Positions 42,807 through 53,736 of a DNA stretch of 64,000 nt are shown here, one piece after another. The notes under the pieces were generated by a model. The model was not told where the DNA came from, searched no databases, and was given only the letters and a program-made list of their open reading frames with translations. Origin of the DNA: Bdellovibrionales bacterium. Lineage in GTDB: Bacteria > Bdellovibrionota > Bdellovibrionia > Bdellovibrionales > UBA1609. Positions within the stretch are counted from its first letter, which is position 1. Each line of letters begins with the position of its first letter. Made by a program: the position numbers and the translations under genes. The stretch lies in the NCBI GenBank assembly GCA_041690295.1, contig JAWLHR010000005.1, positions 64,001 through 128,000 of the forward strand. Reading direction: 5' to 3'.

Positions 42807-43910
42807 TTACAAATCGTCGTAGGAGACTTTGACGATTCTGGACAGCGGTTTGGCCTGGCAGGTGAGGGCTTCGCAGTTCGCGATGTTATCGTCTGTGAGT
42901 ATCCCCGGATCTTTTTGATAGACACGACCTTCTTTGACTTTCGCCATGCACGCCATGCAGGCCCCGTCCATGCACGAGTAAGGGGCTTGATGCCCGGCCT
43001 CAAGTAGAGTTTCCAGAATACTTTGGTCCGCCTTCGCGGGAACCTCGACGGTTTCACCGTTGAGTTCGGCGATGATCTTTTCCGGTGTTCCTTGCTCTTG
43101 GTCCGGACCGATCAGAGTCCAGCTGGAATCCACGGCCGGCGCCGCGGGTTTGTGAACACCCACGGCGAAATCTTCGATGTGAACGCGCTCCGAACTCACG
43201 CTGTTTTTCAGCAAGAATTCCTTGATGGAATTCATAAATTCCGTGGGTCCGCAGAGATAGTAATCGCGCTCCAGACCCGTCGCGCCCGTTTGCGAGAAAA
43301 TCCGCCGCAAAAGATCTTCGTTCAAGCGGCCGCAATTGCCGTTCCAAGAGGAACTTGGGCGCGAAAGCACATGAACCAACTCCAAGCGGGGACTGAACTC
43401 TTTTTCCATCGCCTGGAGTTCCTGTCCGTAGATGATGGAGCTTTCATTGCGATTGCAATAAACAAGTGTCACGCGGTTGGCGGGTCCCGAAGCCAGCACG
43501 GTTTTTAAAATGGAGAATATCGGAGTGATCCCGCTGCCAGCGGCGAAAAGCACGTAGTGAACGCCGGAATCGATCAGCAAAGGTTTAAAGAAATGTCCCG
43601 CCGGCGGTGTCGTGAGAAGGACATCGCCTTCTTTCACGCGCTCGCAAAGGAAAGTTGAACCTCTTCCGCCCTCGACTTTTTTAACCGTCACTTTAAATTC
43701 AGTGTCGGTGAGCGGAGACGTGGAAAGGGAATAGCTGCGGTTCAGCTTTTCACCGTTGATATCCAAAAAGAAACTGACGAACTGGCCGGCTTGATAGCGG
43801 AACTGACTTTTCAGTTCATCGGGAATTTCAAGCACCAAAGAGACCGCCTCAGGAGTTTCCTGTATGCGTTTGATCACCTTAAGCGGCTTCGCCAGCGTGT
43901 CTAAATTCAA
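42807..43910 (-). CDS. FAD/NAD(P)-binding oxidoreductase with C-terminal 2Fe-2S ferredoxin (PaaE-like)
   Basis: RSYSLS, AAGSGITP, YLCGP and YSCMDGACMAC...C; TTG start with GGAGGA RBS. Confidence 0.92.
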   Translation of the reverse strand: MNLDTLAKPLKVIKRIQETPEAVSLVLEIPDELKSQFRYQAGQFVSFFLDINGEKLNRSYSLSTSPLTDTEFKVTVKKVEGGRGSTFLCERVKEGDVLLTTPPAGHFFKPLLIDSGVHYVLFAAGSGITPIFSILKTVLASGPANRVTLVYCNRNESSIIYGQELQAMEKEFSPRLELVHVLSRPSSSWNGNCGRLNEDLLRRIFSQTGATGLERDYYLCGPTEFMNSIKEFLLKNSVSSERVHIEDFAVGVHKPAAPAVDSSWTLIGPDQEQGTPEKIIAELNGETVEVPAKADQSILETLLEAGHQAPYSCMDGACMACMAKVKEGRVYQKDPGILTDDNIANCEALTCQAKPLSRIVKVSYDDL

Positions 43911-44716
43911 TCGCCCATCCTCCATCGCATTTCGCCGATGATTCGCGCCGGTCCGATCAAATGCGGGGCGCCTTTTTTCCATACCACAGTGAGGTCGCCG
44001 CCGGGAACATGCACTTTAAGTGGACGTTCTTCCTGGCCCTTGAGAATGACGGTCGCCGCGGAAACCGCGCCGGTTCCGCAGGCGAGAGTGAAATCCTCGA
44101 CACCTCGTTCAAAGGTCACGCTTTCAATTTCGTGGTTGTGAAGATCGCGAAGGAACGTGACGTTAACGCCTTTGGCCTGAAAACGGGGATGTTGTTTGAC
44201 CGATAAGGCTTTGGCACGAAGCTCGTCGCGATTGTTGATGGAGTCCACGGAAACAACCGCGTGGGGAACTCCGGCATTGACCAAAACGAAATCGGCTCCA
44301 GCTTCAACATCGCCGATGGGTGGAAGATTCACTTCGATTTCGTCTTCCGTGCGCACTTCGGCATGGACCAAGCCGCTCACGGTTTGGAAGCGACAGGTTT
44401 GGACATTGTGGAGTTTGGACCAATAAAGCGCCACCGCCCGAGTGGCGTTCCCGCAGAGTTCGGCCCTACCACCGTCACTGTTATAAAAATCCCAGCGGAA
44501 ATCGGCTTCCTCGTCCGGCTCCAGGAAAACCACACCGTCGGCACCCAAGCCGAAATGCCGATCGCACCAGCGGACCACCAAGTCGGAGCGGGGAGTGGAG
44601 CTAAACTCCTGATCCCAGGTGTTCCGCTGTTCAGGAGTTGTTAAATCGATGATGAGGAAGTCGTTCCCGGCCGCTGTGGCCTTGATTATAGGGGTTACAG
44701 AAAATTTCATCGGCAT
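43907..44716 (-). CDS. dapF: Diaminopimelate epimerase
   Basis: GNDF, GADG, NSDG..AELCGNA, GVPH and ERGVEDFTLACGTG. Confidence 0.95.
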   Translation of the reverse strand: MPMKFSVTPIIKATAAGNDFLIIDLTTPEQRNTWDQEFSSTPRSDLVVRWCDRHFGLGADGVVFLEPDEEADFRWDFYNSDGGRAELCGNATRAVALYWSKLHNVQTCRFQTVSGLVHAEVRTEDEIEVNLPPIGDVEAGADFVLVNAGVPHAVVSVDSINNRDELRAKALSVKQHPRFQAKGVNVTFLRDLHNHEIESVTFERGVEDFTLACGTGAVSAATVILKGQEERPLKVHVPGGDLTVVWKKGAPHLIGPARIIGEMRWRMGD

Positions 44717-44952
44717 GGGCTGAGGTTAGGGGGGATTGGGTGGATTAGCCAAGCGTTTTCGAGCAATAGGGGGTGTTACTCGGCTAGCCAACGTAAGTTA
44801 GTGAATTCTATCGGCATTCATTCGCCTGGCAGCGGGGCTGTCGAAGTTTCGTACTTTTCGAGAATTTTCCCGCCGTGGTGAACTCAAGACTTTTCAGTGA
44901 TTTAGGATAACGCGACCGCTGGCTTGGGTCTTGATATTGTGAGCTATTAGCG

Positions 44953-45234
44953 ATGAATCTGCCTTCTTTACCGGTTGCCGGTTTAATTCTGATCTCGTTT
45001 ATTGTCGGCCTGCGCCTTGGCACCGGTGAACAATTGTCCAGCCTTGACCTCAGCTCGTCAGCACCCTCCGGCGAAATTAATGAACCTGCGAGTGCTTCAC
45101 CGGGTGATTGGTCGGATGAGAGTTTCACGGATGCGAGTCCGGACGCTGAGCGAAAGAGGGTCAACCAAATCATAGATTCGTTGATCGGCAAGGAAGGCGA
45201 AGAGATTCCCGCCGCCGGCCCGGTCAATCGCTAG
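44953..45234 (+). CDS. Small hypothetical membrane-anchored protein
   Basis: Hydrophobic N-terminus and acidic tail; no motif. Confidence 0.4.
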   Translation: MNLPSLPVAGLILISFIVGLRLGTGEQLSSLDLSSSAPSGEINEPASASPGDWSDESFTDASPDAERKRVNQIIDSLIGKEGEEIPAAGPVNR

Positions 45235-45363
45235 CCAGTCATTTTACAAGCCTGAACAAATTTCCCGACATTTCAGAATAATCATTTCAATTTCGCCGAC
45301 TCGATTGGTTAAATCGCCGCGATCGATTATATATTCCAGTCTTCAATGCTCGGGAGAGATCAA

Positions 45364-46575
45364 GTGACATTACGATTGGTGCTTTTATTAGGAACGATTT
45401 CCCTAATTGGTTGTTCCGTCTTTGATGACCTTAAGTCGATGAAAAAAAACATGGGCGAGCTTAAGGGAAAAATGGAATCGGACGTGGGGCATTTAGCGAA
45501 GCGCGCCGACGATCTTGAGCGCGAGATGGCGTTCAAGGAATCCAGCGCCATGTTCAATTACTTCATGGAACTTCTGTTCGGCGAGCGCGATCGTGAGGCG
45601 CGGACCGCGACGGGCATGCCGGAAACAGCGATGTTACTTTATGCCGAGGGCGCGGTGCGGGCGCTTCTCTTTCAATTTTGGAAGGGTGATTACTTCGAGG
45701 CGTTCGAAAATGAACTGGATCAGCGCTTTGAATTGTCCATGGCCATGGTGTTCGCGAGGATCAATGACTACATTCCCCGCGACTTCAACATCTCGCCCCC
45801 AGCGGTTGATTGGTCTGAACTAAAAGTTTATCCGGATCGATCTTATAAGGCGCTGGCATCCTTCGCCGCGCGAATGGATCAGGTTCAACCCACCTATGTG
45901 AAGGCGCTGCAAAGGCACGGCTTGCCGAACCTGTCGATGTACGAAGTCCTGGTTTTGGCTTTGCGCGATCGGGAATTGGTGTCGCAGGTCAGTCCGCTCC
46001 CCCGCACGAAAGCCAAAATTCTCGAATGGAAGAATGAAGCCGTTTATCTGCTGCAGTTGCGCCATAATTATCTGCCGATGATGGTGATGTCGCGCATGAC
46101 GGATTTTAATGATCTGACGAACTTTCAGCGTTGGTGGATGAAATGGACCACCAAGAAAGTGGATTTGAATTCGTACTCTCCCGCGCAACTTCGCGAATGG
46201 ACAGCCTGGTTGAATTCCGCGCGCGAAACCCGCCAGCGCCTGCGTGAGATCGGCATTGAACCGAAGTACAATAAAATTCTTGGCGAAATCTTGCGTTCCA
46301 TCGATTTCGGTCAAGAGAAGATTCTGACCAAGAAGGCTGTGACGGAAGCCGAAAAATTGCAGGTGGACTTCGCCGAGGCGTTTACCGCGATCACTTCGGA
46401 TTTGGAGTCTCAACCCGCGGAATCTTTTCGCGAGCGAATGGCGGGTTGGTTTCTCGGTTGGGGACTCGATCAGCAGCGCTCGCCATCGGAGGATGTGCCC
46501 ATCGTGGCTGAGGATACCGTTGTGAGTCCTTACCTGAATGTTCGTGATCCGAAGATTCGTGAGAAGTTGTTTTAG
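45364..46575 (+). CDS. Hypothetical lipoprotein
   Basis: Lipobox LIGC, then coiled coil and helical body; start estimated. Confidence 0.75.
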   Translation: MTLRLVLLLGTISLIGCSVFDDLKSMKKNMGELKGKMESDVGHLAKRADDLEREMAFKESSAMFNYFMELLFGERDREARTATGMPETAMLLYAEGAVRALLFQFWKGDYFEAFENELDQRFELSMAMVFARINDYIPRDFNISPPAVDWSELKVYPDRSYKALASFAARMDQVQPTYVKALQRHGLPNLSMYEVLVLALRDRELVSQVSPLPRTKAKILEWKNEAVYLLQLRHNYLPMMVMSRMTDFNDLTNFQRWWMKWTTKKVDLNSYSPAQLREWTAWLNSARETRQRLREIGIEPKYNKILGEILRSIDFGQEKILTKKAVTEAEKLQVDFAEAFTAITSDLESQPAESFRERMAGWFLGWGLDQQRSPSEDVPIVAEDTVVSPYLNVRDPKIREKLF

Positions 46576-46596
46576 GTCGCCACTGATTCCCTTTGC

Positions 46597-46837
46597 GGCT
46601 GTTGCGGTAAATGATCTTCGTACCTGGCGCCTCCGACGCTTGCGGAAAAAGCTTCGAATTAAAAAAAATGATTTGATTTGTGATGGGGGCGTTTGCGGAA
46701 TCTCGAGAGAAGTCACATTTCTTCCCGAAGGTTTACCCATGCGCGGGGTGAAAATTGATTGAAGTGCACGGCCTTGCCTGTGAAGGCTGAATTTTTCCTG
46801 AGAGAACTTTGTCAGACTGTGTGCAAAAGCGATACAG
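46597..46837. repeat. Left copy of ~240-bp non-coding direct repeat flanking the HNH gene
   Basis: Aligns with 48194-48436; 46711-46837 vs 48310-48436 differ at only 4 of 127 positions. Confidence 0.95.
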
Positions 46838-46870
46838 AATTTTTACTTTAACACTTCTCGACACGTCCAT

Positions 46871-47986
46871 CTAACTAGATCGTGACTTCAGTCCTTTGCA
46901 TTGGTCTCGCTGATAATTCCTGAATTTATTGTGGGCACTACATAATAAACGAAGATTCTCGAGGTCATTTGAGCCGCCCTTGGCAAATTCGTGAATGTGA
47001 TCGATTTCAAGGCCGTGCCGACTTCCACATTGACGGCCGGTGATTGGATCCACGTAGGTGCATCGAGCATTGGATTTTTGCCAAACTTTCCGTCGGGTTT
47101 GGGCATCGATGTACCTAGACCTTGTTATTTTCGGGTTACTTTTGAGTTGCTTTGCGATTGGAGAATGAATTGGGTCTTCACTGAACTGAACTGATGATTG
47201 ATTCGGGTCTTCGCTTACCTGAGTTGGTGATTGACTCGGGTCTTCACCTAACTGAGCTGGAGAATGACTCGGGTCTTCGCTTAACTGAGTTGGGGGGTTG
47301 CTCGGTCCTTCGTCCAACGTCGTTGTGGATAGATTCTCTAACTTAGCTATGGATCGATTCTGATCATATTCCAATTCAGGTACAGGTTTATTTTTTCTGA
47401 CCTGTTTCAACATATTTTTGGTCATGATTCTGATTAAATTGCCGAGGTCGCCGGAGTAATTTTGGGAAGCTAGCAGGCCTTTAAGTTCATCGAGATCTCG
47501 AAGAAGGTCCTCTTCGGCTTCAAAAGTAAGTTTGACTTTTACCGGTTCGCCAAAAGTTTTCGCGAGTTTTTCGCGTGCGACCTGTTTCGTGCTGCCGCTG
47601 AGTTCGTTAATGATATGCTTTTTTTCCCATGGGGAAAGTGGCGGGAGATCATTTTCGGCGCGCCGCCCATTTTCATTGCGGAATGCGGATTGAGCCAGGG
47701 CTGCGACAGAAAGCGATAACTCACCGGAAGCGATTTGAGACTGGATCTCCGGAACATCGCGCGACAGCCGCATCGCTTGAATTCGAATCTGAGCTTCAGG
47801 TTCTGAGTAGCCGAGACATTCCGTACAGAACGCGAACATCGAGGAATAGCCCCTCGCCAAGTACAGTTTTCGATGTTCCACTTCTCGCAAATATTCCAAG
47901 ATTTGCGCGATCAGTGTTCGTTCTTTTTGTACAAGTTTTTTCAGATCGAAAATCAGTTGTTCGTCGCTGACGTTTCTCGGTTGCAA
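46871..47986 (-). CDS. HNH endonuclease with DUF222-like N-terminal region
   Basis: RGYSSMFAFC...LGYSEPEAQIRIQAMR N-terminus; RCTY..C...LEIDHIHEFAKGGSNDLENLRLLCSAHN; AGAAAGGAGAG RBS before TTG. Confidence 0.9.
   Translation of the reverse strand: MQPRNVSDEQLIFDLKKLVQKERTLIAQILEYLREVEHRKLYLARGYSSMFAFCTECLGYSEPEAQIRIQAMRLSRDVPEIQSQIASGELSLSVAALAQSAFRNENGRRAENDLPPLSPWEKKHIINELSGSTKQVAREKLAKTFGEPVKVKLTFEAEEDLLRDLDELKGLLASQNYSGDLGNLIRIMTKNMLKQVRKNKPVPELEYDQNRSIAKLENLSTTTLDEGPSNPPTQLSEDPSHSPAQLGEDPSQSPTQVSEDPNQSSVQFSEDPIHSPIAKQLKSNPKITRSRYIDAQTRRKVWQKSNARCTYVDPITGRQCGSRHGLEIDHIHEFAKGGSNDLENLRLLCSAHNKFRNYQRDQCKGLKSRSS
47159..47315. repeat. 33-bp tandem repeat (about 4.5 units) in the HNH linker
   Basis: GGGTCTTC at 47172, 47205, 47238 and 47271; encodes QLSEDPSHSPA-type 11-mers. 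Confidence 0.92.
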
Positions 47987-48002
47987 GAACTCTCCTTTCT
48001 CT

Positions 48003-48020
48003 AGTCAATCAAGATTGACT
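48003..48020. promoter_or_regulatory. Perfect palindrome next to the HNH RBS (operator-like)
   Basis: AGTCAATC-AA-GATTGACT. Confidence 0.55.
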
Positions 48021-48193
48021 GTCTAAAGCTCCTTTTCTTTTCGCAATTTAATATTTCGTTTTTGTCGCGTAAATAAAAACAATTTCATTTAGCAATCCGG
48101 AATCCGGACAGAATTGTGAAAAGTTGGGATCGGAAATTTTCGATCTAACGTAAGCATGATTGATGACCTTTGATTGAGTGTTCCGATTCAATG

Positions 48194-48436
48194 GGCTGTT
48201 ACGGTAAATGATCTTTGCACCTCGCTCGCGTCCGCCGATCGCGGAAAAAACTTCGGATTGCAAAAATTGAATTGATTTGTCATGGGGGTGTTTGCGGAAT
48301 CCCGAGGGAAGTCACATTTCTTCCCGAAGGTTTACCCATGCGCGGGGTGAAAATTGATTGAAGTGCACGGTCTTGCTTCCGAAGGCTGAATTTTTCCTGA
48401 GAGAACTTTGTCAGACTGTGTGCAAAAGCGATACAG
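48194..48436. repeat. Right copy of ~240-bp non-coding direct repeat
   Basis: Aligns with 46597-46837. Confidence 0.95.
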
Positions 48437-48463
48437 GGATGATTGGGCACCATACATGTTCGT

Positions 48464-48569
48464 GGCATCGCAAAAGAATTTCGTGAGGTGTGCGTCGCCA
48501 GCCAAAACTTCGTCCAAGGTGTGTTCGGGCTTCAGGCATCGCAAAAGAATTTCGTGAGGTGTGCGTCGC
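48464..48569. repeat. Two identical 35-bp repeats separated by 36 bp
   Basis: GGCATCGCAAAAGAATTTCGTGAGGTGTGCGTCGC at 48464-48498 and 48535-48569. Confidence 0.93.
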
Positions 48570-48592
48570 TGGTCTGCCTTTGGCGATCGGTC

Positions 48593-51500
48593 TTAACGCG
48601 AACCCACGGTGTGATTATTGTGGCAGCGGGTGAAGTCGTATTGGGGCGAGGTCGCCTGGTCAGACAGATAACTCAATAACTTTTCAACCGGCAGTGGTTT
48701 GATTGATTGGGCCTTGATGTTGATCACGCCGCTCGCTTTTTCCAAAATGCCGCAAACATGCAGCAAGGGATGATAGATCAGAGTTAAACGAAACTGATCG
48801 TAAATATCCGGCGGCAAAACCACATTGATCAAACCGGATTCGTCTTCCAAGGTGAGAAAAGCGAAACCCTTCGCCGTGGGCGGGCGTTGTTGCAAGCTGA
48901 GGAGACCGGCCACGCGAACGGGCATGCCGTTGCGGAGGCTCGATAACCGGTGAGCTTTCGTGAACGGCGGCGAGTTGCGCACGCGCTGCCAATCCGACCA
49001 GCGCTCAAGGGCCGGCCGCAAAATTCCCAGCGGGTGACGAACCAAAGAAAATCCTTGCGAGCGGTATTCGCGGTTCAGTTTTTCCCATTCATCTTCCACG
49101 GGTAGCAACTCCTCGTCCCGCTCTTCGGCGGTGGTGAAGAATAAACTTTGCTCATCCAGGCTCAAAGCTTGAATTCGCCACAGGGCTTGGCGGGGCGGCA
49201 GACCCAACGATTCAAAAGCGTCCGCGGCGGCGAGCTGCATGAGCGTGCTTTTGGGCAACCGAGTCCGGCGGATCAAATCGCTTAAATCCTTGAACGGGCC
49301 GTTACGCTCGCGTTCCTCAACGGTTTCTTGGATGTGTTTTTCTTTTAAACCGTAGATGGCGCGAAAACCCGCGCGCACGCATTCGCCTTCGATCGTGTAA
49401 TCGTATTCGGATTTCTGAATGTCGATGCCGAGAAACTTCACCCCATGCCTTTGCGCGTCCATGATCAAAGCGCGGGGTGAATAAAAACCCATGGGCTGCG
49501 CGTTCAGAAGTCCTGTCACAAAGATTTCAGGATAATGGCATTTGATATAGCAGCTGGTGTAGGTGATGAGCGCGAAACTCGCGGCATGACTTTCAGGAAA
49601 ACCGTAAGAAGCGAAACCCACGATGGTTTGGTAAATCTGTTCGGCGTACTGCTGGGAGATACCGTGATCCAACATGCCGCTGATCAAACGCTGGCGCAAA
49701 CCGAGCATGAGATCCTGTTTCTTCCAGCTCGAAGACATAATTCGCCGAAGCTCGTCGGCTTCTCCCGGAGAAAATCCGCCCACCGTGGACGCGATCTGCA
49801 TGATTTGCTCTTGAAAGATCGGAACTCCGCAGGTGCGCTCGAGAATCGGCTTCAAGTCTTCGTGGGCGTAGGTCACAGGTTCCAGCCCGTCGCGCCGGCG
49901 GATGAAGGGATGAATCATTCCGCCCTGGATCGGACCCGGCCGGATGATGGCCACCTCAATCACCAAGTCGTAAAAGTTTCGGGGCTTGAGCCGCGGCAGT
50001 AAAGACATCTGCGCGCGTGATTCGATTTGGAAAGTGCCCACCGTGTCGGCGCGACCGATCATTTCGTATGTGGCCGGATCATCGGACGGAACATTGTAAA
50101 GATCGTAATGAACGCCGCGATGTTTTTTCAGCAACTCAAAACATTTTTGCAGGGCGGTGAGCATGCCAAGTCCCAGAACGTCGATCTTCAGCATTTTCAA
50201 AATGTTCAGATCGTCTTTGTTCCATTGGATGACGTAGCGTTGGTCCATGGTGGCTTTTTCCACCGGCACGCATTCCATGATCGGCCGCTTGGCGATTAAA
50301 AAACCGCCGGGGTGAATGCCCAGATGCCGGGGAAAGCCCACCAAGGCGCGGGCGATTTGCAGCCAGAGTTTGAAGGTCTTCTCATCGATTTTCCACTCCC
50401 GTGCTTTTTCAGGCGCGGACTCCAGGCGGGAGATGCCTTCGCGCCCCATGAACTTCACGGCTTCATCGATGGTCGGCAAAGGAATGCCCAGCACTTTGGC
50501 GGATTCGCGCAAAGCCATGCGCGAGCGATAGCAGATCACGTTGCACACCATGGCCGCGTGTTCGGAGCCGTACTTTTGATAAATGTACTGGATGACTTCC
50601 TCGCGCCGGCCGCTTTCGAAATCGATGTCGATATCGGGAGGCTCGCCGCGTTCTTTGGAAATGAAACGCTCGAACAGAAGTTGCACTTTGGTGGGATCGA
50701 CGGCGGTGAGGCCGAGCGCGTAGCACACCACCGAATTGGCGGCCGAGCCGCGCCCTTGGTGTAAAATGCCCTCACGCACGGCGAACTGGCACACATCCCA
50801 AAGGGTTAAAAAATAATCCTCGAATCGCAGTTCGTGAATCAGCGCCAGTTCGTGTTCAACCATTTCGCGAACCTTCGGGCTGATGCCGTTCGGGAATCGC
50901 CATTTCAACCCTTGCTCGGTGAGCAGGCGAAGGTATTCATCAGCTTCCATTCCGGGCGGTCGCGCGGCCTCGGGGTATTCGTATCGCAGTTCTTTTAAAG
51001 AAAACTGAATGCGCCGGGCGATGTCGGCGGTTTTGTAAAGAAGGTCGGGTCGATCGGCCCAGATCTTCACCAACTCGGAAATGGGCTTCAAGTGACGTTC
51101 GCCATTGGTGATCAAACGGGTTTTCGCTTCCCGCAAGGTGCATTTGTGCAAAATGCAAGTCAGCACATCGAGAACCGGTTTGCGCTCGGCCGCGTGCATG
51201 AACGGACGTTGAGTGGCGAAAAGTTCGAAACCATGTTGTTCTTCGAGAATCAAAGCCTGCCGGTAGTAGTGAAGGGATTCCCATGTGTAGTCTTTCCACA
51301 CCGGCAGATAAAGACGGTCGTGGTAAATGTCACGCAATTGGTTCAGTAGCCCAGGCTCCCACGGCGGCAAAGCGAAGGCCATCAAGTCATCGCTGTAAAG
51401 AGCCAGGATATCCAAGGTGAGATTGGAAAAACCTTTTTCGCTATTCCGTTTGCTCTCGGTGATGATCCGGCAAAGATTGGTGTAGCCGTCTTTGTTGAGG

Positions 51501-51847
51501 GGGATCAGCGCCACGGAAGTTTTATTGGCCAGTTGCATCTCGGCGCCGCAGTAAAAATGAAAGGGCCGGTTGGATATTTTATGCGCCAGAAATTCGGAAG
51601 GATACTCGATCGCCTGAAAAGCGCGGACAACTCCATAAAGGCCATTGAGATCGCAAAGAGCCAGGCCTTCATAACCTAGCTCCTTGGCCTGCAAAACCAT
51701 TTCTTCGGGATGGGATGCGCCCTGCAGAAAAGAAAAATTGGATCGGGCGAGCAATTCAACAAAAGGATGCTCCCGGTCGGCGCTGACCGGTGCATCGCGC
51801 TTAATCGAAATAACCGTGGAGGTAATATTGGTTTTCGATCCGGTCAT
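48593..51847 (-). CDS. dnaE2: Error-prone DNA polymerase DnaE2 (ImuC)
   Basis: SNFSFLQGASHPEE, GRGSAANS, PPDIDIDFE, YGFPESHA and QRPPTAKG. Confidence 0.96.
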   Translation of the reverse strand: MTGSKTNITSTVISIKRDAPVSADREHPFVELLARSNFSFLQGASHPEEMVLQAKELGYEGLALCDLNGLYGVVRAFQAIEYPSEFLAHKISNRPFHFYCGAEMQLANKTSVALIPLNKDGYTNLCRIITESKRNSEKGFSNLTLDILALYSDDLMAFALPPWEPGLLNQLRDIYHDRLYLPVWKDYTWESLHYYRQALILEEQHGFELFATQRPFMHAAERKPVLDVLTCILHKCTLREAKTRLITNGERHLKPISELVKIWADRPDLLYKTADIARRIQFSLKELRYEYPEAARPPGMEADEYLRLLTEQGLKWRFPNGISPKVREMVEHELALIHELRFEDYFLTLWDVCQFAVREGILHQGRGSAANSVVCYALGLTAVDPTKVQLLFERFISKERGEPPDIDIDFESGRREEVIQYIYQKYGSEHAAMVCNVICYRSRMALRESAKVLGIPLPTIDEAVKFMGREGISRLESAPEKAREWKIDEKTFKLWLQIARALVGFPRHLGIHPGGFLIAKRPIMECVPVEKATMDQRYVIQWNKDDLNILKMLKIDVLGLGMLTALQKCFELLKKHRGVHYDLYNVPSDDPATYEMIGRADTVGTFQIESRAQMSLLPRLKPRNFYDLVIEVAIIRPGPIQGGMIHPFIRRRDGLEPVTYAHEDLKPILERTCGVPIFQEQIMQIASTVGGFSPGEADELRRIMSSSWKKQDLMLGLRQRLISGMLDHGISQQYAEQIYQTIVGFASYGFPESHAASFALITYTSCYIKCHYPEIFVTGLLNAQPMGFYSPRALIMDAQRHGVKFLGIDIQKSEYDYTIEGECVRAGFRAIYGLKEKHIQETVEERERNGPFKDLSDLIRRTRLPKSTLMQLAAADAFESLGLPPRQALWRIQALSLDEQSLFFTTAEERDEELLPVEDEWEKLNREYRSQGFSLVRHPLGILRPALERWSDWQRVRNSPPFTKAHRLSSLRNGMPVRVAGLLSLQQRPPTAKGFAFLTLEDESGLINVVLPPDIYDQFRLTLIYHPLLHVCGILEKASGVINIKAQSIKPLPVEKLLSYLSDQATSPQYDFTRCHNNHTVGSR

Positions 51848-53111
51848 AAAAGATCCACAGGAATTCCTGTTTGGGTGAAATGGCGAAGTAATAATCCCGT
51901 CCGCGCGAACTTTCCCACCAGCTGTCTTCAAGGCGTTCGATCGGTTGGGAGCTTAAAAACTGCAGACGGTCCAACTCCGTTTTGGAAAGCGCGCGCGGTT
52001 TCTTTAATAAACGCGACGGGCGCGGTGATTGGTTTAAAGCCGCGCTGTAAGCCGGACGGATTTGAAAGCTTTGGCCTTCGACTTCCACGGAGTCTTCGAT
52101 GGGTTCGTAATCCTCGAATTCCGGCGTGACCCGCCAACCGTCTTCGGGCCAGATTTCATCTTGCGGGCGTAAGAACCCCGTGGTCAGCCGGGCCTGATGA
52201 AAAACGCTCACCAGCTGTTCCATTTTCTCGCGATCACTGACTCTCGGCTCGAAAAAGGAAAGCTGGTGAATTTTTTCTGGACAGGGCACGACTTCGACTT
52301 CGATTTGTTTGATCGGGTTGTCCAAGTTCACATCGGCCAGCTTGTTTTCCAATAACTTCATGAAAAGTTCCTGATTGCGATTGGGTGAGGCCGGCTCCAA
52401 TTCGATCACGTGCACTTTTTCCGAGTATTCGCAGAACAAATTAATGATCATCCGGCGGGCGTACTCGCCCCGTCCTTGCAAGCGGGCGAAAAGCCGCTTC
52501 ACGCTCTGCTCAAGGCAATGGAGAAGGAAGGGGAGCAGGGAGACGGGAAAATCCAGATAAACATAGTCTTGAACCGCTTCGGTGGGGAGCAATGGGGAGA
52601 TCACTTGTTTGTCGAGGCCGTGCAGGCGTTTCCACACCAGCGTTCCGGTTTCCTTCCAGCGTTCGCGGAAGGAGTCGATCTGAAATTTACGGATCTGATT
52701 CAGTCTGTGAATGCCGATGCCATGGAAAAAGTCGATGATGTTCTCGATTTCCTGGCTGGAGCGCCAAGCGATCAGGCCTTCCAGCTGATGCAGGCGGGAC
52801 AAAGGCGCTTGGCTGAGATCATTAATCTCATGGGCGGGCAGGGAAATGGCGCCGGGTTTTTCATTGGCCAGAACCTGGGCGCCCCACGGCGAATCGGAAA
52901 TGGCCGCCACGGTCTCGGGGAAAAACTCCTTCGAGACCTGCACGGCTTCGTTCATGAGATTTTGTTCGCCGCCGAAAAGCTTCGCGGTGGATGTGATATC
53001 GAGAAACACCAGCCCCGGCGCGCGATAATGCACGCGAGGGCTGAAGGTGAGAAAATTCTCAGCGACAGAGGGCGCGGCGTCCCGCTGCAAGCAGAGGCAA
53101 AGTGTCCGCAT
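51801..53111 (-). CDS. imuB: ImuB-like inactive Y-family polymerase
   Basis: FSPRV, LDIT..LFGGE, ERLEDSWW..RDYY and YLHGYFD; lies between imuA and dnaE2. Confidence 0.88.
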   Translation of the reverse strand: MRTLCLCLQRDAAPSVAENFLTFSPRVHYRAPGLVFLDITSTAKLFGGEQNLMNEAVQVSKEFFPETVAAISDSPWGAQVLANEKPGAISLPAHEINDLSQAPLSRLHQLEGLIAWRSSQEIENIIDFFHGIGIHRLNQIRKFQIDSFRERWKETGTLVWKRLHGLDKQVISPLLPTEAVQDYVYLDFPVSLLPFLLHCLEQSVKRLFARLQGRGEYARRMIINLFCEYSEKVHVIELEPASPNRNQELFMKLLENKLADVNLDNPIKQIEVEVVPCPEKIHQLSFFEPRVSDREKMEQLVSVFHQARLTTGFLRPQDEIWPEDGWRVTPEFEDYEPIEDSVEVEGQSFQIRPAYSAALNQSPRPSRLLKKPRALSKTELDRLQFLSSQPIERLEDSWWESSRGRDYYFAISPKQEFLWIFYDRIENQYYLHGYFD

Positions 53112-53736
53112 AGAGGTCACTCCTTTCCAGTGTGGTTGGGGTTGGTCGATGCAAGGCGCGAATCACGCACACTTCTTTTTTCTGAAAATGAAGCACCAGC
53201 GAGTAAAATGAACTGAGACGCTGGGGAGTTTTTCGGCTGAATAAAACCAAAGAGGTTTGAAAGCGCGAAGCCTGGCTTTTTAATTTTAAAATATGATGAT
53301 CCTTCGGCGCCCATTCGCCTAAATCACAACCGATCAGTTCGAATAAACTTAAGGACATGAGTTCCTGTAAGACCCAAAGCCTTTGCCGCTCATCATGGGG
53401 AGGGGAGACATAAAGAAAACGACTCAAGTCCACGCCGCGCGCGCGTAAACTCCATGCGGTCAAAGAGGTTGCGGAATCATTCACCCACGCCGCCCATTGT
53501 CCGTGCCCGGTCACCAAAGCCGCGCTCCGTAACCAAAGCGAAGTGGCGCCGCCGGCCTCGGTGAGCATCAGGGAAACGGAGCTTTTGGGAAAGCCATGCC
53601 ATAGTAAAAATCGATCCAGTTTATTCCAGCCGGTGGGCACTCCCGGCGGCGGTTGGACCTGTTCACTGGAAAGCAATCGGGGTCCAAGTTCACGCTTAAG
53701 TTTATTTATTTGCTCCACACTCGCGAGCGTCGCCAT
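53059..53736 (-). CDS. imuA: ImuA-like RecA-fold protein
   Basis: PTGWNKLDRFL..GFP, AAWV and GVDLSRFLYV; operon position. Confidence 0.8.
   Translation of the reverse strand: MATLASVEQINKLKRELGPRLLSSEQVQPPPGVPTGWNKLDRFLLWHGFPKSSVSLMLTEAGGATSLWLRSAALVTGHGQWAAWVNDSATSLTAWSLRARGVDLSRFLYVSPPHDERQRLWVLQELMSLSLFELIGCDLGEWAPKDHHILKLKSQASRFQTSLVLFSRKTPQRLSSFYSLVLHFQKKEVCVIRALHRPTPTTLERSDLYADTLPLLAAGRRALCR

Follow-up and report, generated by a model that had tools for sequence, protein, structure and literature searches.

An HNH nuclease gene inserted between convergent genes of a Bdellovibrionales bacterium and bracketed by direct repeats that end in a dispersed motif

We analysed a 64,000-nucleotide (nt) stretch of contig JAWLHR010000005.1 from a Bdellovibrionales bacterium (assembly GCA_041690295.1), hereafter the window, in which a single gene for an HNH nuclease lies between two direct repeats of about 240 nt. 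Repeats and gene form a cassette that is inserted between two convergent genes, one encoding a protein of 409 amino acids (aa), here called LEFT, and the other a DnaE2-type DNA polymerase. The explanation that we favor, with about even confidence, is that the locus is one copy of a multicopy and likely selfish HNH cassette of the DUF222/13E12 type, whose direct repeats end in a motif that the nuclease likely recognises. The original prediction had offered two readings of the repeats, namely a cis-acting end or target of a selfish HNH element and a structured RNA partner of the nuclease. The first of these is now supported by the insertion itself, by a species-specific motif present in ten copies, by a duplication that ends at the edge of that motif, and by a multicopy gene family whose members are bracketed by repeats; the second found no support, as described below.

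The repeats were confirmed as a same-orientation pair at 46597-46837 (241 nt) and 48194-48436 (243 nt). They matched each other at E 1e-90 in a search of the whole assembly (G000; 2.88 Mb, 30 contigs, 52.5% GC), which returned no third full copy. The two copies are identical at 219 of 243 aligned columns with a 2-nt indel, and this identity is uneven: the motif-proximal part, at the right-hand end on the + strand, agrees at 119 of 123 positions, and the distal part at 100 of 120. The only open reading frame (ORF) that they enclose is the intact HNH gene (371 aa; 46871..47986, - strand), the stop codon of which lies 33 nt from the left copy. GC content falls to 0.40-0.49 over 46600-48400, compared with 0.50-0.59 in the flanks and 0.525 genome-wide. 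Each of these features had been noticed in the original prediction (the pair of copies around one HNH gene, the near-identical 3’ part beside a diverged 5’ part with a small indel, the AT-richer DNA and the 33-bp spacing), and all of them held on measurement.

The cassette occupies the junction between LEFT (45346..46575, + strand) and the dnaE2-type gene (1112 aa; 48593..51931, - strand), with the left repeat copy beginning 22 nt past the LEFT stop. Comparison of this junction, there called lipoprotein-dnaE2, had been suggested as a way to find an empty site, and an empty site is what relatives have. LEFT has an ortholog in 14 of 17 other same-genus genomes, and it converges on dnaE2 in relatives: in ten same-genus genomes (G005, G002, G015, G007, G010, G001, G003, G008, G004 and G014), the tblastn matches of LEFT and DnaE2 converge and end 12-192 nt apart, compared with 2017 nt here. 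We conclude that the window cassette is an insertion between two convergent genes. In a further genome, G009, the gap holds an acyltransferase gene and a different HNH paralog (L042, G009:C49, 2744-3631; 295 aa, opposite orientation) that lies 5 nt from the dnaE2 stop and represents an HNH insertion at this junction that is independent of the first; a 16-nt word from its linker recurs inverted just upstream of the gene. The gaps of G013 and G012 (1.5 kb and 3.4 kb) gave no HNH match, and in G006 there was no DnaE2 match in the 1.3 kb of contig past LEFT.

Both repeat copies end, at their outer edge, in a dispersed 32-nt motif (46806..46837 and 48405..48436, + strand), the second copy of which lies 418-449 nt upstream of the HNH start codon. 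The 26-nt core of the motif, GTCAGACTGTGTGCAAAAGCGATACA, occurs ten times in the window's genome when up to three mismatches are allowed and is absent from each of the 17 other same-genus genomes; a reversed control gave 0. Aligned copies have about 32 nt in common and then diverge abruptly after ...GATACAG, and the 241-nt duplication ends at the exact base of this edge. An imperfect inverted repeat, CTGTGTGC-AAAA-GCGATACAG, lies within the motif. All ten copies fall outside the listed surrounding ORFs of at least 100 aa, mostly between convergent genes or 3’ of a gene. The 32-nt motif is the likely site of recognition by the nuclease, which would use it to copy itself.

Two further arrangements of the motif were seen elsewhere in the genome. 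At C6:10636-11936, two inverted copies bracket 1.3 kb that contain a 282-aa ORF and no nuclease gene, a transposon-like layout; the N-terminal helix-turn-helix of this ORF appears LysR-like by eye only. In addition, the 32-nt motif and the palindrome ACTTCCG-N3-CGGAAGT, each of which accompanies a different HNH paralog, are only 12-22 nt from one another in shared intergenic spots at C6:11936/11958, at C19:12502/12514 and in the C6:10636 region.

The repeat as a whole is a mosaic, composed of a 53-nt module, a 70-nt piece of a PEBP-family gene and the 32-nt motif at the outer edge. Repeat positions 1-53 are 79% like a sequence at C6:118755, approximately 400 nt from a Y1_Tnp gene. Positions 88-157 copy an internal part of a PEBP-family gene (C26:7861-8316; Pfam PBP, 9e-23). 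In the left copy, the fragment (46686..46751, + strand) is 91% identical to C26:8085-8150; in the right copy, the fragment (48281..48350, + strand) is 94-95% identical to C26:8085-8154, a stretch that codes HWGVYGIPKEVTFLPEGLPMRGV in the source gene. The fragment stands in the coding sense, but stops on either side cut it off.

The HNH gene starts with a TTG codon preceded by AAAGGAGAG, and the 207-nt AT-rich stretch 5’ of the gene (47987..48193, - strand) includes a ribosome-binding site. In the protein, an N-terminal helical domain (aa 1-200) is joined through a disordered linker (aa ~205-290) to an HNH domain (aa ~290-368); the linker carries 11-aa repeats (SEDPSHSPAQL-like) encoded by four 33-nt tandem units (47158..47322, - strand). 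The sole Pfam family found was HNH (PF01844; aa 320-350, 9.4e-8, 32.5 bits where the cut-off is 21.4). When 38 homologs (30-54% identity) were aligned, they displayed the same organization, with a conserved N-terminal region of ~200 aa, a variable low-complexity linker and the HNH domain, and all of the invariant family residues (C309, C320, D329, H330, N344, C349 and N353) are present in the window protein. In its AlphaFold model the N-terminal domain is confidently all-helical and the HNH domain has a predicted local distance difference test score (pLDDT) >90. The protein had been called DUF222-like, which stands at the level of the family (PF02720, or DUF222, matches 14 of the 38 homologs, best E 3.4e-5) and fails for the window protein itself, where PF02720 gave no match at E<=1. 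Because the family matches these homologs but not the window's 371-aa protein, we class the latter as a distant DUF222/13E12-type HNH protein.

The composition of repeat and protein bears on the possibility that the nuclease works with a structured RNA transcribed from the repeat, as IscB does with its omega-RNA (HEARO), flanking DNA serving as guide. The omega-RNA lies upstream of the IscB ORF, and the right repeat copy, read in the HNH orientation, similarly starts at a sharp element edge upstream of the ORF. There is also a weak match of the HNH domain to the NCBIfam guided_IscB family, and two 151-nt contigs from an RNA library, which may be DNA carry-over, fall on 46490-46641 and 46735-46885. 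Nevertheless, a scan of 46000-49000 against Rfam at E<=1 gave no match, HEARO included. Folding of both copies on both strands was no better than that of shuffles (z 0.51, -0.04, -1.08 and 0.86), the two copies fold differently from each other, and the repeat contains the recent copy of a coding fragment just described. The guided_IscB match (NF040563) scores 30.6 bits where 175 are required, and it covers only aa 289-359, the HNH part; the Pfam scan contained no RuvC family, there is no RuvC or PLMP domain, and the model is a helical N-terminal domain followed by a disordered linker and an HNH domain. IscB identity is thus ruled out, as the original prediction had argued from the missing motifs. 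Finally, the repeat sequence accompanies no other paralog. We therefore consider an RNA partner highly improbable, and it is the least supported of all the readings; that the repeats are DNA-level flanks, and not an RNA gene, forms part of our best explanation.

The window's HNH protein has 19 matches at approximately 11 loci in the same genome, some of them fragments. Beside these paralogs the whole 240-nt repeat never recurs, contrary to one expectation of the original prediction; what recurs in the genome is the terminal motif only, and the other paralogs have motifs of their own. Several carry their own short motif in the flanks and again within the gene, in the linker directly ahead of the HNH domain: ACTTCCGATTCGGAAGT at the C2 paralog, ACAAGTCCCGGGACCAGTTC at C1:271, CACCCGCGCCGGCCAAGAAA at C18, C27 and C1:52, and a 40-nt palindrome at C1:219. 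These motifs are mostly palindromes, and the two that were tested across the genus are essentially specific to this genome. We then counted shared 16-mers for the 1917 long ORFs of the genome, at least seven of which can be named as HNH paralogs. The two 700-nt flanks had a 16-mer in common at 15 ORFs, five of them HNH paralogs including the window gene; interior and 700-nt flanks had one in common at 25 ORFs, four of them HNH paralogs, and the interior motif copies were all in the linker before the HNH domain. Members of the HNH family are bracketed by repeats unusually often. Identity of the N-terminal domain across paralogs ranges from 23 to 74%, with 74% between C18 and C27, which have a common motif, and 23-41% between paralogs with unrelated motifs.

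Alternatively, the arrangement could be incidental: the motifs would be REP-like intergenic hairpins that Y1/RAYT enzymes or recombination had spread and that accumulate where genes are sparse, the HNH gene would be an old resident, and the 241-nt repeat an ordinary local duplication in which the nuclease plays no part. The genome does have seven Y1_Tnp (RAYT/IS200-like) matches, which could mobilise short hairpin repeats, and one Y1_Tnp gene (C6:63303-63944) is bracketed by inverted 28-nt repeats in the classical REP-RAYT layout. At C14, the distance between a Y1 gene and a copy of the ACTTCCG...CGGAAGT palindrome is 330 nt, the first 53 positions of the window repeat resemble DNA close to the Y1 gene at C6:118755, and motifs of different families are adjacent at C6:11936/11958 and C19:12502/12514. 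Palindromes of the C1:271 family, moreover, bracket two non-HNH genes too. However, none of the ten copies of the 32-nt motif has a Y1 gene near it, the nearest being 8.5 kb away, and neither motif copies in the coding linker of five paralogs nor paralog-specific motif families would be expected from passive accumulation. The share of HNH paralogs among the bracketed ORFs (5 of 15 among 1917) and the coincidence of the duplication boundary with the motif edge also argue against a chance arrangement, which we regard as unlikely.

We examined the HNH gene family beyond the genus. Across the taxonomic family, 18 of 41 sampled genomes have it (E<=1e-20), with 1-32 matches each, many at contig ends. 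In G107, a genome represented by one 1.5-Mb contig, the HNH ORF is the only one in each of four units of 1737-1757 bp, which are bounded by 26-nt inverted repeats; approximately six further ends are solo, and 5-nt direct repeats, ATTCC and GGAAT, flank two of these units. In G077, a repeat of ~110-130 nt has 45 matches, of which 20 lie within 500 nt of one of the 30 listed HNH matches (1.8% of the genome) and 25 within 1000 nt of HNH matches (2.9% of the genome). One G077 HNH gene is bracketed by direct repeat copies that are 97% alike, as in the window. Approximately 20 HNH matches of G077 have exactly one in-frame stop (TGA, TAG or TAA); they could be two-ORF forms or decaying copies.

The G107 units bring in the main rival to our explanation, a transposon resembling an insertion sequence (IS) that uses the HNH protein as its transposase. 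In that case the motif would be a terminal repeat (the left end), the nuclease would make staggered cuts, and the window would contain one element plus the first 241 nt of a truncated second tandem copy. Such a route fits G107 better than the window. In G107 the terminal inverted repeats are perfect, the units have a single ORF and occur as four full copies with about six solo ends, and the 5-nt direct repeats flank two of the four. The window motif begins with TGTAT and ends with CTGACAAAG, like the G107 end, and lies ~420-450 nt upstream of the ORF, compared with ~400 nt in G107; the inverted motif pair at C6:10636-11936 spans 1.3 kb. The likeness to the G107 end is nevertheless weak, as chance alone would yield TGTA-N14-20-CTGACA[AG]A ~5 times per genome and it was seen 4 times. 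The 5-nt flanks of G107 may mark a preferred palindromic target and not a duplication; a third element is flanked by GGAAT and, at its opposite end, by ATTCC. The C6 pair encloses the ORF judged LysR-like by eye and no HNH gene. At the window itself the motif has no inverted partner and there is no target duplication; no inverted repeat of at least 20 nt was found within 45000-50000. An HNH transposase did not appear in the literature listings consulted. We rate this transposon reading as rather improbable.

For the selfish-cassette reading, we propose the following route. The helical N-terminal domain, which has a weak likeness to the DNA-binding domains of ParB and KorB, would bind the imperfect palindrome of the motif, and the HNH domain would make a nick or a cut at the edge of that motif. 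The break would then be repaired by copying from a motif-flanked donor, in a homing-like gene conversion with template switches that bring in filler DNA. Such repair would duplicate the flank and carry the gene to further sites that bear the motif, and solo motifs would remain. Cut-and-copy repair of this kind would account for the duplicated flank, the homogenised motif-proximal 120 nt, the PEBP filler and the solo motifs.

A number of observations count against the selfish cassette or its proposed route. Binding and cleavage of the motif are activities predicted for the HNH protein from sequence, and the pairing of the window's motif with its paralog draws on their being neighbours in one genome. 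Of the ten motif copies, eight are far from any HNH gene. The window gene has no interior copy of its own motif, and its flanking copies are direct, not inverted, with no target-site duplication. C1:219 has an N-terminal domain 66-67% identical to those of C18 and C27, yet a different flanking motif. At 28 loci in 16 other genomes, 16-mers were common to the two flanks at 4 and to interior and flank at 6, with either at 9 and neither at 19. The Y1_Tnp genes discussed above offer another means of spreading short hairpins. No HNH-less allele or excision joint was found among contigs of public runs, which at their short length and ~2-8x depth are uninformative either way. Lastly, VIA-align superposed aa ~20-187 of the model on DNA-binding domains from ParB, KorB and Spo0J with Z scores of 5.0-6.0 (6s6h_B, Z 6.0, 116 aligned, root-mean-square deviation (rmsd) 9.3; 8qa8_A, Z 5.8, 99 aligned, rmsd 3.6; 1r71_A, Z 5.6, 98 aligned, rmsd 3.5; 1vz0_A, Z 5.0, 91 aligned, rmsd 3.1), which at Z <8 is only a hint and for helical domains may reflect a shared arrangement. 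Foldseek against the PDB returned nothing at E<=0.001, only weak HNH rows, and its ParB rows had probabilities of 0.13-0.30.

A broader proposal, which we offer tentatively and with less confidence than the reading of the locus itself, is that DUF222-type HNH genes are a transposase-free mobile class. Each paralog would encode a protein-guided, site-specific nuclease with a ParB-like head; its own 17-33-nt motif would stand in the flanks and, for most paralogs other than the window's, also in the gene; and the gene and solo motifs would spread by break repair. If this is true, the class would be the HNH counterpart of the REP/RAYT partnership and an explanation of REP13E12-type repeats. DUF222/13E12-type HNH genes are common and multicopy, and the genome studied here offers a testable pairing, in that nuclease paralogs each come with their own short species-specific DNA motif. 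Should the nuclease bind and cut its motif, this would explain movement without a transposase, gene-conversion hotspots at such loci and the origin of some short dispersed bacterial repeats, and it would make available natural nucleases that differ from each other in their long recognition sites.

Among known systems, the locus comes closest to REP13E12, as a new form of such likely selfish HNH cassettes, and its mechanism is one that we infer. Like REP13E12 of Mycobacterium tuberculosis and other Actinobacteria, it has one gene with a helical, putatively DUF222-type N-terminal domain and a C-terminal HNH domain, in several dispersed copies per genome, in units of ~1.4-1.8 kb and with no transposase. 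Unlike REP13E12, it belongs to the phylum Bdellovibrionota, and its protein has no PF02720 match. The copies in this genome are strongly diverged (23-74% in the N-terminal domain), forming paralog lineages each with its own species-specific motif, and the window copy is bracketed by long direct repeats.

In REP/RAYT systems, a single-copy-type gene is flanked by short imperfect palindromes that are also scattered between genes, and paralogs have different repeat families. The HNH loci resemble this in having a gene flanked by a short, imperfectly palindromic motif that is also dispersed intergenically, and in the paralog-specific families. They differ in that the enzyme is an HNH nuclease and not a Y1 transposase flanked by its own REPs (the Y1_Tnp matches are all elsewhere than at the window), in that the window's flanking copies are direct, and in that other HNH paralogs carry the motif inside the coding linker. 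Free-standing HNH homing endonuclease genes of the phage type likewise lie between conserved genes that have no such insert in relatives, are lower in GC and spread by break repair, as we propose here. By comparison, the present genes are multicopy in one genome, and their candidate target is a short dispersed motif and not a conserved host gene. A homing endonuclease cleaves the nuclease-free allele at or close to the place where its own gene is inserted; for the present gene such cleavage is a prediction, and what the sequence shows are the empty sites in relatives and the sharp edge of the motif. The IscB/HEARO (OMEGA) systems also have an HNH nuclease gene, here preceded by ~240 nt of element-edge sequence, but the window protein has no RuvC/PLMP domain and the repeat neither a HEARO match nor an RNA-structure signal. 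Classical insertion sequences have terminal inverted repeats, a target-site duplication and a transposase gene, none of which was found at this locus in the inverted-repeat search of 45000-50000 and the family scans of the HNH protein and six neighbour ORFs; the G107 relatives have 26-nt inverted ends.

REP13E12 loci are characterised as gene-conversion hotspots with no defined function (PMC13061034), and gene conversion between copies is described as frequent (PMC13061034, PMC10589994). A study of Peredibacter genomes gives 10 and 13 HNH endonuclease genes for two strains, of which only 6 are at shared sites (PMC13147790). The literature searched on DUF222-HNH, REP13E12 and related HNH genes, mostly in the form of abstracts, contained no description of paralog-specific motifs or of a mechanism.

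The original prediction had named an assembly duplication as an alternative source of the repeats. This was rejected: the two copies differ at 10% of positions, and three of the four junctions are bridged by contigs from public runs of other studies at >=99% identity. Run X1 spans LEFT/left copy, X7 and X20 span left copy/HNH, and X6 and X1 span HNH-upstream/right copy. None of the contigs listed from these runs reached across right copy/dnaE2. Contigs of runs X3 and X5, from two studies, run from the right copy at 48436 into the flank of the motif copy on C7 and not toward dnaE2. These joins are possibly recombination through the motif or an effect of 31-mer assembly; we treat them as a possible assembly effect and not as a rearrangement, since the two places carry an identical 32-nt motif and a 31-mer graph underlies the contigs.

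The neighbours of the cassette are ordinary genes for DapF, a ferredoxin reductase-type protein, LEFT and the DnaE2-type polymerase, a DNA polymerase III alpha subunit (PF07733 6e-83, PF17657, PHP, HHH_6 and OB). LEFT has no Pfam or NCBIfam family above cut-off. Four neighbour ORFs of 42807-53120 (269, 391, 409 and 1112 aa) were scanned, the smaller ORFs lying outside the scan, and had no transposase, integrase or cas family; two further neighbour ORFs (139 and 439 aa) had no Pfam match. Pfam gave no transposase family for the HNH protein itself or for these six neighbours.

A simple promoter scan of 46400-48700 gave no sigma-70-like site. The left repeat copy contains a terminator-like hairpin with a T-run (46769..46799, + strand), and such hairpins are not above chance in the scanned region (2 seen, 3.4 expected from shuffles). 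A LexA/SOS link was considered and dropped, as the Bdellovibrio LexA box, which we take to be TTACN3GTAA, has no match in the window. Elsewhere in the genome, three repeat families of 56-63 copies each were found at contig ends (C7:121-417, C11:100555-100769 and C5:155168-155293); these probably represent insertion sequences or repeated genes and have no relation to the HNH loci. A perfect 35-nt direct repeat pair (48464-48498 and 48535-48569), its members 71 nt apart and found only here in the genome, lies in the interval from the right repeat copy to the stop codon of dnaE2.

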